Shown here piece by piece: positions 1-3,512 of a stretch of DNA of 3,757 bases; within the stretch, counting starts at the first letter, position 1; each line of letters starts with the position of its first letter. The stretch covers positions 1-3,757 of the IMG/VR virus record IMGVR_UViG_2681813227_000020; one strand, written 5' to 3'. This DNA comes from a virus. Its lineage: Duplodnaviria > Heunggongvirae > Uroviricota > Caudoviricetes. The translations under genes and the position numbers were made by a program. The notes below the pieces were generated by a model. That model was not told the origin of the DNA. It did no database searches and worked only from the letters and a program-made list of their open reading frames with translations.

Positions 1-786
1 ATGAGTACAGCACTCGCAACGCTGGCAGGGAAGCTGGCTGAACGTGTCGGCATGGATTCTGTCGCCCCACAGGAACTGATCACCACTCTTCGCCAGACGG
101 CATTTAAAGGTGATGCCAGCGATGCGCAGTTCATCGCATTGCTGATCGTCGCCAACCAGTACGGTCTTAATCCGTGGACGAAAGAAATTTACGCCTTTCC
201 TGATAAGCAGAACGGCATCGTTCCGGTGGTGGGCGTTGATGGCTGGTCCCGTATCATCAATGAAAACCAGCAGTTTGATGGCATGGACTTTGAGCAGGAC
301 AATGAATCCTGCACATGCCGGATTTACCGCAAAGACCGCAATCATCCGATCTGCGTTACCGAGTGGATGGATGAATGCCGCCGCGAACCATTCAAAACCC
401 GCGAAGGCAGAGAAATCACCGGACCGTGGCAGTCGCATCCCAAACGGATGTTACGGCATAAAGCCATGATTCAGTGTGCCCGTCTGGCCTTCGGATTTGC
501 TGGTATCTATGACAAGGATGAAGCCGAGCGCATTGTCGAAAATACCGCATACACTGCAGAACGTCAGCCGGAACGCGACATCACTCCGGTTAACGATGAA
601 ACCATGCAGGAGATTAACACTCTGCTGATTGCCCTGGACAAAACATGGGATGACGACTTATTGCCGCTCTGTTCCCAGATATTTCGCCGCGACATTCGCG
701 CATCGTCAGAACTGACACAGGCCGAAGCAGTGAAAGCTCTTGGATTCCTGAAACAGAAAGCCTCTGAACAGAAGGTGGCTGCATGA
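1..786 (+). CDS. bet: Red-beta (Bet) single-strand annealing protein, 261 aa
   Basis: ORF 1..786 translates to [21 protein letters not shown]...KASEQKVAA, which I recognise as near-identical to lambda Bet (261 aa). Stop TGA 784-786 overlaps the exo ATG at 783-785. Confidence 0.95.
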
Positions 787-1463
787 CACCGGACATTATC
801 CTGCAGCGTACCGGGATCGACGTGAGAGCTGTCGAACAGGGGGATGATGCGTGGCACAAATTACGGCTCGGCGTCATTACAGCTTCAGAAGTTCACAACG
901 TGATAGCAAAACCCCGATCCGGAAAGAAATGGCCTGACATGAAAATGTCCTACTTCCACACCCTGCTTGCTGAGGTTTGCACCGGTGTGGCTCCGGAAGT
1001 TAATGCTAAGGCGCTGGCCTGGGGAAAACAGTACGAGAACGACGCCAGAACCCTGTTTGAATTCACTTCCGGCGTGAATGTTACTGAATCCCCGATCATC
1101 TATCGCGACGAAAGTATGCGCACCGCCTGCTCTCCCGATGGTTTATGCAGTGACGGCAATGGCCTTGAGCTGAAATGCCCGTTTACCTCCCGGGATTTCA
1201 TGAAGTTCCGGCTCGGTGGTTTCGAGGCCATAAAGTCGGCTTACATGGCCCAGGTGCAGTACAACATGTGGGTGACGCGAAAAGATGCCTGGTACTTTGC
1301 CAACTATGACCCGCGTATGAAGCGTGAAGGCCTGCATTATGTCGTGGTTGAGCGGGATGAAAAGTACATGGCGAGTTTTGACGAGATGGTGCCGGAGTTC
1401 ATCGAAAAAATGGACGAGGCACTGGCTGAAATTGGTTTTGTATTTGGGGAGCAATGGCAATGA
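783..1463 (+). CDS. exo: Lambda-type 5'-3' exonuclease (Red-alpha), 226 aa
   Basis: ORF 783..1463 translates to [38 protein letters not shown]...GFVFGEQWQ, recognised as lambda exonuclease (226 aa). ATGA overlap with bet stop, the classic bet/exo junction. Confidence 0.95.
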
Positions 1464-1642
1464 AGCATCCTCACGATAATATCCGGGTAGGCACGATCAC
1501 TTTCGTCTACTCCGTTACAAAGCGAGGCTGGGTATTTCCCGGCCTTTCTGTTATCAGAAATCCACTGAAAGCACAGCGGCTGGCTGAGGAGATAAATAAT
1601 AAACGGGGGGCTGTATGCACAAAGCATCTCCTGTTGAGTTAA
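1460..1642 (+). CDS. orf60a: Small exo-xis region protein Orf60a-like, 60 aa from ATG 1460 (62 aa if ATG 1454 is used)
   Basis: ATG at 1460 overlaps the exo stop (TGA 1461-1463) as ATGA; an in-frame ATG also exists at 1454. Protein [60 protein letters not shown]. Size and position match lambda orf60a immediately downstream of exo. Confidence 0.7.
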
Positions 1643-1806
1643 GAACGAGTATCGAGATGGCACATAGCCTCGCTCAAATTGGAGTCAGGTTTGTGCCAAT
1701 ACCAGCAGAAACAGACGAAGAATTTCATACGTTAGCCACATCCCTTTCACAAAAGCTGGAAATGATGGTGACGAAAGCAGAAGCAGATGAGAGAGACCAG
1801 GTATGA
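1615..1806 (+). CDS. orf63: Small exo-xis region protein Orf63-like, 63 aa
   Basis: ORF 1615..1806, protein [64 protein letters not shown]-rich Shine-Dalgarno (GGGGGG 1603-1608) about 6 nt upstream. Overlaps the 3' end of orf60a by 28 nt in another frame, as in lambda. Size and position match lambda orf63. Confidence 0.75.
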   Translation: MHKASPVELRTSIEMAHSLAQIGVRFVPIPAETDEEFHTLATSLSQKLEMMVTKAEADERDQV

Positions 1807-1886
1807 CAACCACTGAATGCATTCTTCTGGCAGCGGGCTTCATATTCTGTGTGCTTATGCTTGCCGACATGGGACTTGTTCAATGA
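1803..1886 (+). CDS. Candidate 27-codon hydrophobic micro-ORF (MTTTECILLAAGFIFCVLMLADMGLVQ), unannotated in the ORF track
   Basis: ATG 1803-1805 overlaps the orf63 stop (TGA 1804-1806) and its own stop (TGA 1884-1886) overlaps ATG 1883 of the next gene, so it is ATGA-coupled on both sides. It encodes an uninterrupted ~15-residue hydrophobic stretch, long enough for a single membrane-spanning helix. No independent SD. Could be chance. Confidence 0.25.
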   Translation: MTTTECILLAAGFIFCVLMLADMGLVQ

Positions 1887-2098
1887 CACCTCAGCAAGAA
1901 AACGCCCTTCGCAGCATTGCCCGTCTGGCTAACTCTGAAATCAAAAAAGCCAGACAGCAGTTTCCGGATAAAAACGTCGATGACATTTGCCGTAGCGTAC
2001 TGAAGAAGCACCGCGAAACGGTAACGCTGATGGGATTCACACCGACTCATTTAAGCCTGGCAATCGGTATGTTAAACGGCGTCTTTAAGGAACGGTGA
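1883..2098 (+). CDS. orf61: Small exo-xis region protein in the orf61 position, 71 aa from ATG 1883 (93 aa if ATG 1817 is used)
   Basis: Open frame 1817..2098. The stretch from ATG 1883 (MTPQQENALRSIARLANSEIKKARQQFPDKNVDDICRSVLKKHRETVTLMGFTPTHLSLAIGMLNGVFKER) looks like a genuine small helical protein. The 22 codons from 1817 (MHSSGSGLHILCAYACRHGTCS) are Cys/His-rich, low quality, and overlap the micro-ORF frame. Gene symbol is positional (between orf63 and orf73), not sequence-verified. Confidence 0.55.
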   Translation: MTPQQENALRSIARLANSEIKKARQQFPDKNVDDICRSVLKKHRETVTLMGFTPTHLSLAIGMLNGVFKER

Positions 2099-2196: not shown

Positions 2197-2418
2197 ATGG
2201 CAGACCTCATTGATTCAGCATCAGAAATTGAAGAATTACAGCGCAACACAGCAATAAAAATGCGCCGCCTGAACCACCAGGCTATATCTGCCACTCATTG
2301 TTGTGAGTGTGGCGATCCCATAGATGAGCGAAGACGCCTGGCCGTTCAGGGTTGTCGGACTTGTGCAAGTTGCCAGGAGGATCTGGAGCTTATCAGTAAA
2401 CAGAGAGGTTCGAAGTGA
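2197..2418 (+). CDS. orf73: TraR/DksA-family C4 zinc-finger protein (lambda Orf73-like), 73 aa
   Basis: Protein MADLIDSASEIEELQRNTAIKMRRLNHQAISATHCCECGDPIDERRRLAVQGCRTCASCQEDLELISKQRGSK. Acidic N-terminal helix (D3, D6, E10, E12, E13) followed by Cx2C (C35, C38) ... Cx2C (C56, C59) with an extra Cys at 53, the hallmark architecture of TraR-like proteins. 73 aa, as lambda orf73. Stop overlaps ea22 start (GTGA at 2415-2418). Confidence 0.85.
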   Translation: MADLIDSASEIEELQRNTAIKMRRLNHQAISATHCCECGDPIDERRRLAVQGCRTCASCQEDLELISKQRGSK

Positions 2419-3053
2419 GCGAAATTAACTATCAGGAACTGCGTGAAGCGGCAGCGCAGGCAATGCATGACGACTGGGGATTTGATGTGGACCTTTTCCA
2501 TGAGATGGTAACACCATCGATTGTGCTGGCACTGCTGGATGAACGGGAAAGAAACCAGCAATACATCAAACGCCGCGACCAGGAGAACGAGGAGATTGCG
2601 CTTACGGTTGGGAAGCTGCGTGTTGAGCTTGAAGCAGCAGAGAACAACCTTATTGATAGTGAATGCCATGTTGCTGAACTGGAAGAAGCTCTACGCGATA
2701 AGCAGGCGTTACTTGAAGCCTCAGAAAAGCGCAACGCAAAATTACAAAGCGAGAATGCATACATCCGCAACCGGTACAAAGAACTGGACCTATTAATCGG
2801 GAAAAACATTCTGGTCATGCAGGCTGCCATTATCGAATGGCAGGCAACTGGCGACGCTAAGAGCGGACTAGCATGGATTTATAACACACTGTTTGGCCCT
2901 GGCGAATTACCGGACGAATCTGAGAAAGATGCTCAGGCCTACTTTAATCGCAAATATGCACCGATTGACGAAAAGCTTATGGCGCTTCACAAGTGGTTTT
3001 GGGAACAAAGTGAAGCCGAGCGCGCCGCTGGCATTCGCATCAAAGGAGAGTGA
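2415..3053 (+). CDS. ea22: Ea22-family protein, 212 aa, with a central coiled-coil segment
   Basis: GTG start at 2415 with SD AGAGAGG (2403-2409) 5 nt upstream. N-terminus MSEINYQELREAAAQAMHDDWGFDVDLFHEMVTPSIVLALLDERERNQQYIKRRDQENEEIALTVGKLRVEL and C-terminus ...AERAAGIRIKGE resemble my recollection of lambda Ea22, while the middle (heptad-like, E/A/L/K-rich: ELEAAENNLIDSECHVAELEEALRDKQALLEASEKRNAKLQSENAYIRNRYKELDLL) is different and longer (212 vs 182 aa in lambda). Confidence 0.8.
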   Translation: MSEINYQELREAAAQAMHDDWGFDVDLFHEMVTPSIVLALLDERERNQQYIKRRDQENEEIALTVGKLRVELEAAENNLIDSECHVAELEEALRDKQALLEASEKRNAKLQSENAYIRNRYKELDLLIGKNILVMQAAIIEWQATGDAKSGLAWIYNTLFGPGELPDESEKDAQAYFNRKYAPIDEKLMALHKWFWEQSEAERAAGIRIKGE

Positions 3054-3054
3054 G

Positions 3055-3258
3055 ATGAACGGACAAATCTCAATTGTTCGACCGGGAGCATGTGACGATT
3101 GCGAGATACGAATGATTATTCGTCTGGCGATGGGGAAAACAATAACTGCTCTCATTACTCCAGAAAATCTCGCATTAGCATTAACCGGAAAGTCAGACCT
3201 GCCAGTAGAGCTAAAGCTGCGAAATGTTGAGATTAAGGTGAATATCAGCAATGAATAA
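3055..3258 (+). CDS. Hypothetical small protein, 67 aa, with one CxxC pair (C13, C16)
   Basis: ATG 3055 lies 1 nt after the ea22 stop (TGA 3051-3053), with a GGAG Shine-Dalgarno (AAAGGAGAG, 3042-3050) upstream inside the ea22 3' end. Protein MNGQISIVRPGACDDCEIRMIIRLAMGKTITALITPENLALALTGKSDLPVELKLRNVEIKVNISNE. The ORF-track entry 2893..3258 is this frame extended upstream into ea22. It occupies the position where lambda carries ea8.5, but I do not recognise the sequence. Confidence 0.6.
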   Translation: MNGQISIVRPGACDDCEIRMIIRLAMGKTITALITPENLALALTGKSDLPVELKLRNVEIKVNISNE

Positions 3259-3330
3259 CAATCCTCGCATTCGCGGGGATTTCTTTTATCTGAACTCGCT
3301 ACGGCGGGTTTTGTTTTATGGAGATGATAA

Positions 3331-3498
3331 ATGCACTTCCGAGTCACAGGTGAATGGAATGGAGAACCATTCAACAGAGTTATCGAAGCCGAGAACATCA
3401 GCGACTGCTATGACCACTGGATGATATGGGCGCAGATAGCACATGCAGAAGTAACCAATATTCGAATTGAAGAACTGAAAGAACACCAAGCCGCCTGA
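3331..3498 (+). CDS. Hypothetical small protein, 55 aa, conserved-looking prophage protein of unknown function
   Basis: ATG 3331 preceded by GGAG (3320-3323) at 7-nt spacing. Protein MHFRVTGEWNGEPFNRVIEAENISDCYDHWMIWAQIAHAEVTNIRIEELKEHQAA has a globular-looking composition (aromatic core residues, charged C-terminal helix). Stop TGA 3496-3498 lies in the loop of a strong intrinsic terminator. Below the ORF-track length cutoff. Possibly related to small DUF-type proteins found next to xis in E. coli prophages, but I cannot verify this. Confidence 0.55.
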   Translation: MHFRVTGEWNGEPFNRVIEAENISDCYDHWMIWAQIAHAEVTNIRIEELKEHQAA

Positions 3499-3512
3499 TG
3501 GCGGTTTTTTTA
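3488..3512 (+). terminator. Strong rho-independent terminator (CCGCC-tgat-GGCGG followed by TTTTTTT)
   Basis: Perfect 5-bp GC stem 3491-3495 / 3500-3504 with loop TGAT, extendable by G-U and A-U pairs at 3488-3490 / 3505-3507, followed by 7 T (3505-3511). The loop contains the stop codon of the 55-aa ORF. Confidence 0.7.

Follow-up and report, generated by a model that had tools for sequence, protein, structure and literature searches.

The Small Gene in the ea8.5 Slot of a Lambdoid Prophage Encodes a Member of HkaF (PHROG 1222), a Widespread Family of Phage Early Proteins

INTRODUCTION

In lambda and Stx phages, the exo-xis region as a whole changes lysogenization and induction (PMC3824215, PMC8614690, PMC7093339), and ea8.5 is reported to influence phage development more strongly than any other exo-xis gene (PMC10789677). 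The structural work on lambda Ea8.5 that is cited in PMC8614690 describes a helical hybrid homeodomain/zinc-finger fold with a zinc site (PDB 2M7A). Another protein of the region, lambda Orf55, has been modeled as a T7 Gp2-like RNA polymerase binder (Donaldson 2021, PMC8614690). The papers on the exo-xis region do not discuss the open reading frame (ORF) that is the subject of the present work, and we found no paper on its phage HK620 counterpart, hkaF, or on the corresponding family, phrog_1222, including in the supplements of an anti-defense prediction preprint.

We examined a 3,757-bp stretch of DNA (hereafter the window), which represents the early-left end (pL side) of a lambdoid prophage displayed in the direction of transcription (Table 1). 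An initial annotation had drawn attention to a 67-residue ORF within it, described as an orphan CxxC protein and proposed as a host-interaction or anti-defense factor. The window copy proves to be one further allele of a known conserved hypothetical, and the main value of the analysis is corrective; it also sets the boundaries of the cassette on which the gene is carried and the residues that are conserved family-wide.

Table 1. Features of the 3,757-bp window (position 1 is its first nucleotide)
Feature	Position	Strand	Remarks
bet	1-786		
exo	783-1463		
orf60a / DUF1317	1454-1642		
orf63 / DUF1382	1615-1806		
orf61-like gene	1883-2098		
orf73, TraR/DksA-like	2197-2418		
Ead/Ea22-like gene, 212 aa	2415-3053	+	Pfam Ead_Ea22, E 2e-21; PHROG 250, E 1.5e-84
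Translation-initiation region	3031-3054	+	Last ~8 codons of upstream gene (...GIRIKGE-stop), Shine-Dalgarno, TGA, one spacer base
Candidate coding sequence, 67 aa	3055-3258	+	HkaF / PHROG 1222 family, small phage early proteins
Variant C-terminal tail	3244-3258	+	N-I-S-N-E-stop in place of the usual K-stop; right mosaic junction
Two tandem intrinsic-terminator-like hairpins, each with a T-run	3260-3311 (3260-3281, 3292-3311)	+	Terminator scan
orf55 homologue, 55 aa	3331-3498	+	96% identity to lambda Orf55 NP_597778; PHROG 676
Strong terminator hairpin, bidirectional-looking	3488-3507		At end of orf55 homologue; terminator scan
TorI-type excisionase gene, 66 aa	3557-3757	+	TorI annotation in near-identical prophage

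RESULTS AND DISCUSSION

Position and start signals of the candidate gene

The gene order of the window (ea22-like, candidate, orf55 homologue, xis) matches that of lambda (ea22, ea8.5, orf55, xis), which places the candidate in the ea8.5 slot, as first annotated, and within the variable region between the recombination genes and xis that had been pointed to as a site of cargo. What it shares with Ea8.5 is this pL operon slot, with ea22 on one side and orf55 on the other, and the standing of a small early accessory protein. No BLASTP alignment with lambda Ea8.5 was obtained at an E value of ≤100, in agreement with the earlier view that the two are unrelated. Moreover, Ea8.5 is helical with a zinc site, whereas the candidate is predicted to be β-rich with no conserved Cys or His ligands, and a Foldseek search of the PDB with its model returned no Ea8.5 homologues. 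Membership in the Ea8.5 family was rejected on the absence of sequence similarity and on a predicted structure of four strands and one short helix, with no homeodomain-like zinc fold.

The candidate ORF runs from an ATG at position 3055 to a TAA at 3256-3258, and its translation is exactly the 67-residue sequence initially quoted. A Shine-Dalgarno sequence (AAGGAG, 3043-3048) lies 6 nt 5′ of the ATG, and a single base separates the stop codon of the ea22-like gene (TGA, 3051-3053) from the start. The description of a well-formed small gene, with a good Shine-Dalgarno sequence and clean start and stop codons and tightly coupled to ea22, thus holds. The Ead/Ea22-like gene itself begins with a GTG that overlaps the stop codon of the orf73/TraR-like gene. 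In the prophage, expression of the candidate would come from the early-left (pL) operon, in which it follows bet, exo, and the exo-xis genes.

Evidence for translation and selection

From 87 of 90 sequences (89 related loci plus the window, 63- or 67-residue forms only), 40 distinct nucleotide alleles were obtained. The median dN/dS over the 604 allele pairs with dS > 0.05 was 0.11, and variable sites at codon positions 3, 1, and 2 numbered 59, 30, and 12, respectively. Because dN/dS is ~0.1, the candidate is taken to be a translated gene; absence of translation, which the initial annotation had named as one of the points on which its reading would fall, is contradicted both by this ratio and by the prevalence of third-position variation. 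By these measures, the ORF is far beyond a chance one and is under strong selection.

A chance ORF or a decaying remnant with no functional gene might be suspected from the atypical C-terminal tail of the window copy and from the adjoining deletion scar. Against this stand, besides the dN/dS, the Shine-Dalgarno sequence and coupling kept across related loci and a confident predicted fold that is reproduced in distant homologues. The variant tail, for its part, lies past the last predicted strand and recurs in three other loci (L007 to L009) and in the prophage of E. coli OkiPb01711, and we give a nonfunctional gene next to no probability.

A widespread family without a characterized member

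The candidate is not the orphan it was taken for. It matches the PHROG 1222 profile with an E value of 3.4e-40 (residues 1-62 against positions 1-62 of 63), and its homologues form 88 clusters at 90% identity in a collection of 5.8 billion proteins, 96 representatives at 50% clustering, and 147 proteins when a broader profile is used. By tblastn, the family is present in 181 phage GenBank records, and by megablast, the gene is found in 716 of 5,426 complete E. coli genomes (~13%). Members consist of a single domain of ~63 residues encoded in a phage early or accessory cluster, and the candidate likewise is a 67-residue protein with a variant 5-residue tail, encoded in the pL-side exo-xis region.

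The product of hkaF in HK620 (AAK28854), recorded as “unknown,” is 92% identical to the candidate. Together with the 63-residue proteins of BP-4795, JLK-2012, mEp460, Salmonella phage ST160, and many Stx1a- and Stx2a-converting phages, it shows 90 to 98% identity over residues 1 to 62, and, like the candidate, these relatives come after an Ead/Ea22-like gene, to which they are coupled at the same 1-nt distance. P22-like phages are also among the carriers; lambda and phi24B have no gene of the family. The host genera are Escherichia, Salmonella, Enterobacter, Citrobacter, Cronobacter, Lelliottia, Yersinia, Serratia, Pectobacterium, Erwinia, Tatumella, and Rosenbergiella. Virulent carriers include Dhillonvirus, Avunavirus Av-05, and Rogunavirus ACG-M12, and E. 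coli lambdoid copies are 65 to 79% identical to copies in virulent phages or other genera. A 77% identical homologue with Ea22-like and DUF551-type neighbors was also found on a 420-kb contig (CACSKA010000005.1) labeled Chryseobacterium sp. 18061, a genus of Bacteroidota; the contig looks like an enterobacterial contaminant or a mislabeled assembly.

The family nevertheless has no characterized member; database and fold searches gave only “hypothetical protein.” No characterized homologue emerged from Pfam, NCBIfam, PADLOC, PDB sequence and fold searches, BFVD, or two large homologue searches. Queried with the candidate protein, Pfam, NCBIfam, and PADLOC returned zero families (for PADLOC, 0 at an E value of ≤1), and the source names of the homologues were all “hypothetical protein,” save for a JGI label, on one zinc-ribbon fusion, that is spurious. 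When 45 family members were scanned against Pfam, 8 gave an MDMPI_C match (best E value, 3e-4), which was set aside as a weak spurious motif match. A family carried by roughly one of every eight complete E. coli genomes is thus very common, yet it has no Pfam or NCBIfam model.

The CxxC motif and the conserved residues

The label “CxxC protein” did not survive alignment, since neither cysteine is conserved. The window copy reads C13-D-D-C16, but the commonest allele (27 of 90 loci) has DDRE where the window has DDCE; position 16 is Arg, Ser, Glu, Gln, Lys, or His in other members, and many have Ala, Ser, Thr, or Gly in place of C13. The CxxC is an accident of the window allele. Two cysteines by themselves are insufficient for a zinc site. 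A zinc-binding or redox-active CxxC protein, for which the C13-D-D-C16 of the window copy would speak, is refuted by a family with zero conserved cysteines and Arg for C16 in its commonest allele, and we attach virtually no credence to it; the cysteines would have no part in the mechanism.

In the broad family, G45 alone is invariant, and I7, R9, and T44 are near-invariant. The family signature comprises h-S-h-x-R near the N terminus, (P)E(D/N)(F/L)ALALTGxS(D/E)(V/L)P in mid-protein, and RN in the last strand. The window copy has all the family-wide residues, i.e., I7, R9, T44, G45, and the ALTGxS(D/E)xP and RN motifs.

A cassette with defined junctions

In 83 of the 89 related loci, the gap between the upstream stop codon and the start codon is 1 nt, and in 74 the next gene begins two bases past the candidate's stop codon. 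The upstream gene is Ead/Ea22-like in 65 loci, an unrelated 155-residue ORF in 15, and a 164-residue ORF in 3; elsewhere it is the DNA polymerase gene (Dhillonvirus) or a DnaB-type helicase gene (Erwinia phage 49). Nearly all close relatives keep the string CATCAAAGGAGAGTGAGATGAAC, even though the sequence farther 5′ and the upstream gene vary, and in enterobacterial prophages the differing upstream genes all end in ...I-K-G-E-stop. They share this ending because the last ~25 nt, CATCAAAGGAGAGTGAGATG, travel with the small gene, whose Shine-Dalgarno sequence they supply. On this sequence evidence, the gene moves as a promoterless cassette (its own Shine-Dalgarno sequence plus the ORF), translationally coupled to whatever is upstream, and it is tied neither to Ea22 nor to the ea8.5 slot. 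We are therefore nearly certain that the candidate is a genuine, translated, and constrained member of the widespread ~63-residue HkaF family (PHROG 1222), carried as such a cassette and coupled to the upstream early gene.

The right-hand boundary of the cassette is the stop codon, and a DUF551/EaA-type gene comes next in 78 loci. Family members are usually 63 residues long and end in ...EIKVK, the 67-residue form ending in ...KVNISNE being a rarer variant that arises from a mosaic junction. The window copy thus differs from the HkaF relatives, which end in ...KVK and are followed by the DUF551/EaA-type gene, whereas it is followed by hairpins and orf55. Homology to the common 63-residue form stops at about 3254-3257. 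The ...KVNISNE tail is shared by the window, L007 to L009, and the OkiPb01711 prophage; in L007 to L009, it precedes a 1.7-kb module with an antirepressor gene (PHROG 1726, E 2e-96). This module (L007, 4241-5985) is missing from the window, which joins the orf55 region via 35 unmatched bases (3295-3329). A 57-codon ORF at 3251-3424 (MNNNPRIRGDFFYLNS...) overlaps the candidate's stop codon, and in L007 to L009 the same sequence leads into the antirepressor module; the ORF is a remnant left where the window lacks the module.

The two hairpins directly 3′ of the candidate have a predicted RNA folding energy of −26.4 kcal/mol (z = −3.8 versus shuffles). Since they lie inside the pL operon, 5′ of orf55 and xis, read-through would need N-type antitermination. 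An Rfam search of the window found no RNA family.

Genomic contexts, fusions, and anti-defense

A neighborhood survey of the kind proposed in the initial annotation found homologues in the early regions of temperate and virulent phages with no single partner gene, and the same junction occurs with three or more unrelated upstream genes. In the virulent Dhillonvirus SSL-2009a, the order is DNA polymerase, HkaF gene, VRR-NUC-type endonuclease, Lar-like protein, helicase, and methyltransferase, and in Avunavirus Av-05, the gene sits among small early genes near the DNA polymerase gene. In Erwinia phage 49, which is temperate, the gene belongs to the nin region and directly follows a replicative DnaB-type helicase gene, with Lar, NinX, and Dam genes after it. 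In a prophage of Erwinia tracheiphila, the homologue overlaps the start of a small DNA methyltransferase gene; in the E. tracheiphila locus L006, the methyltransferase copy after HkaF (4192-4685) is frameshifted, and an intact copy (6822-7295) lies 2.6 kb downstream. A homologue of ~35% identity follows a GamL-RecT-YqaJ recombination module, and rarer two-domain relatives (130 to 170 residues) of metagenomic phages are encoded beside SbcC-like, RNR, ThyX, dUTPase, and RuvC genes.

These two-domain proteins (P0142, P0145, P0151, P0163, P0166, P0169, and P0173; L091, 6001-6399; L092, 6001-6522) combine an N-terminal HkaF-like domain with an unannotated C-terminal domain that has a recurring GW...Y.GS...Y.Y pattern. 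In two E. coli proteins (P0088 and P0109; PHROG 11564), the last 38 residues of HkaF follow the N-terminal two-thirds of a small SAM-dependent DNA methyltransferase, and such chimeras account for the candidate's odd “DNA methyltransferase” PHROG match. In six further proteins (P0068, P0093, P0102, P0119, P0130, and P0098), zinc-ribbon modules, N or C terminal, or an EndoVII/HNH module are fused to the HkaF domain; some of these may be read-through of adjoining small genes. Domain fusions were discarded as functional clues, as they gave no informative family match and several look like read-through or deletion chimeras. The Ea22-HkaF “fusions” P0089 to P0092 were likewise discarded, their linker being an out-of-frame translation of the Ea22 3′ end, which makes them frameshifted or overextended gene calls. 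The same holds for a 121-residue, TTG-started ORF at 2893-3258 of the window, the upstream part of which is not conserved and again represents the out-of-frame Ea22 3′ end.

The initial annotation had proposed an anti-defense factor, i.e., a protein that inhibits restriction-type or other DNA-targeting immunity early in infection. In its favor, all of it circumstantial, the gene does occupy a known lambdoid cargo hotspot and early accessory regions of virulent phages; in SSL-2009a and Erwinia phage 49, a Lar-like restriction-alleviation gene stands two genes downstream; in the E. tracheiphila prophage, the next gene encodes a small DNA methyltransferase; and methyltransferase-HkaF chimeras exist. 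The gene is also phage restricted, being found on 5 of 72,556 plasmids, all of them non-mobilizable and 88 to 111 kb in size. By the same count, a plasmid leading-region location was rejected, and absence from the leading regions of conjugative plasmids counts against anti-defense, as do the lack of a PADLOC match, a predicted fold unlike any solved anti-defense protein in the PDB, and the small number of independent contexts behind the neighbor association. High conservation across genera and lifestyles together with a low dN/dS is, in addition, unlike an arms-race gene. Searches for the known anti-defense families (Acr, Ocr/Ard, Gad, Tad, and Lar) in Pfam, NCBIfam, and PHROG, which are general libraries only, gave no functional match. 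Overall, we consider an anti-defense role a live but unlikely rival to the reading favored below.

Predicted structure

An AlphaFold2 run on a 45-sequence alignment gave a model with a pLDDT of 88.3 and a pTM of 0.70, in which four strands and one short helix follow in the order β1 (4-8), β2 (18-25), β3 (28-34), α1 (36-43), and β4 (52-56). Independently predicted BFVD models of homologues of ~32% identity, from Erwinia phage 49 and ACG-M12, superpose on it at TM scores of 0.80 to 0.87. Structure prediction followed by Foldseek, a check suggested in the initial annotation, thus yielded a confident model and no match in the PDB (best E value, 0.2); the BFVD fold search returned uncharacterized family members only. 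The modeled HkaF domain is accordingly without a structural relative in the PDB searches.

At the sequence level, PDB searches with narrow and broad profiles recovered only a ubiquitin hairpin motif of 20 residues (IRMIIRLAMGKTITALITPEN on the candidate side), scoring 10 bits per domain. The order of hairpin then helix is common to the candidate and to the β1-β2 hairpin of ubiquitin. Homology to ubiquitin was rejected, since the impressive E values are due to the repeats of polyubiquitin and are inflated by their summation, and a ubiquitin-like β-grasp fold was rejected for want of a significant whole-domain match in sequence or fold. Matches to InlB-type B-repeat and RCC1-like repeat proteins in the search with representatives amounted to 2 to 6 bits per repeat and were dismissed as artifacts of the same summation.

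In size (55 to 65 residues) and in having few strands and one helix, the candidate resembles the small β/α early inhibitors T7 Gp2 and phi29 p56 and the lambda Orf55 model; by analogy, early expression and presumed binding of a host protein would be common to all of them. The fold of the T7 Gp2 type, three strands and a helix, was not found in the candidate.

Possible roles

The reading that we favor, tentatively and at somewhat less than even chances, is that HkaF is a nonenzymatic early protein whose binding partner is a conserved component of host or phage DNA metabolism. It would act as a single-domain binder built of a four-stranded β-sheet and one short helix. A sheet domain this small could not bury both faces, so it probably dimerizes or docks onto a partner, an argument drawn from the secondary-structure content of the monomer model. 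A DNA-metabolism role is favored by the placement of the gene after bet and exo in the window and near GamL-RecT-YqaJ, DnaB-type helicase, and DNA polymerase genes elsewhere, and by the SbcC-like, RNR, ThyX, dUTPase, and RuvC neighbors of the two-domain relatives; this recurrence beside replication and recombination genes, taken with the size of the fold, suggests dimerization or docking on a DNA-metabolism protein. The family (63 to 67 residues) has no conserved catalytic-type motif. With 8 acidic and 8 basic residues, the candidate carries no net charge, so that it does not qualify as a DNA mimic and is not an obvious DNA binder. The siting among DNA-metabolism genes may merely reflect early-gene clustering there, and the Lar-like and methyltransferase neighbors would, by association, suit anti-restriction equally well.

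Since virulent phages keep the gene, it would serve lytic development, as opposed to integration, immunity, or lysogenic conversion; that temperate and virulent phages alike carry it under strong purifying selection likewise points to usefulness in lytic growth. The low dN/dS and the 65 to 79% identity maintained across genera and lifestyles suggest that the target is probably conserved and not fast evolving. HkaF would then act early in lytic growth on a component conserved across Enterobacterales, the likeliest target being a host or phage replication, recombination, or repair protein and not a lysogeny-specific factor.

A modulator of the lysis-lysogeny decision, like the exo-xis proteins Ea8.5, Orf60a, Orf61, Orf63, Orf73, and Ea22, would accord with the effects of the region on lysogenization and induction (PMC3824215, PMC8614690, PMC7093339) and with residence in the slot of ea8.5, the gene of strongest effect (PMC10789677). 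The family occurs equally in strictly virulent phages, which have no lysogeny; phi24B and lambda, in which the exo-xis effects were measured, lack it; and the candidate is unrelated to Ea8.5. Such a role therefore seems improbable. Still less probable, to the point of being very doubtful, is an envelope or lysis factor underlying the “enterohemolysin-2” phenotype, in which cloned phage DNA leads to release of the ClyA cytolysin in E. coli K-12. It is brought to mind by the HK620 record, which annotates hkaF as “similar to ORF in enterohemolysin-2 clone,” and by Oscarsson et al. 2002 (as cited in PMC7093339), according to whom the ehly1 and ehly2 determinants trigger ClyA release and encode no hemolysins. 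The phenotype, however, was ascribed to the clone and its Ea22-like ORF and never mapped to the small ORF, and direct reading of the candidate sequence shows no signal peptide or membrane segment.

To return to binding of a conserved component, a bolder version holds that HkaF is a new small fold by which temperate and virulent enterobacterial phages neutralize one conserved host machine or immune component, e.g., a DNA-repair or restriction-type nuclease. This is speculative and, in our estimate, has perhaps one chance in a handful of being right; if true, HkaF would be an unrecognized and very common host-takeover or anti-defense factor in ~13% of complete E. coli genomes. A protein of 63 residues is of convenient size for nuclear magnetic resonance and pulldowns.

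Neighboring features of the prophage

A 99% identical prophage adjoins dsdC in E. coli OkiPb01711, where the candidate is annotated “hypothetical protein.” RefSeq treats the Ea22-like gene of this prophage as a partial pseudogene, yet, read from its GTG start, it matches Pfam Ead_Ea22 in full from residue 2. In its C-terminal half (residues 101 to 199), the Ea22-like protein of the window matches the PADLOC model DpdH (E 8.7e-37; model positions 13-111 of 127). Either the C-terminal domains of Ead/Ea22 proteins have a relative in DpdH of the Dpd DNA-modification island, or prophage sequence went into building the PADLOC model. The OkiPb01711 excisionase (L002, 7557-7757) is annotated TorI (response-regulator inhibitor), and the prophage abuts dsdC with no integrase on the excisionase side, a KplE1/CPS-53-like arrangement. 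The integrase of HK620 is likewise annotated as similar to the cps-53 integrase.
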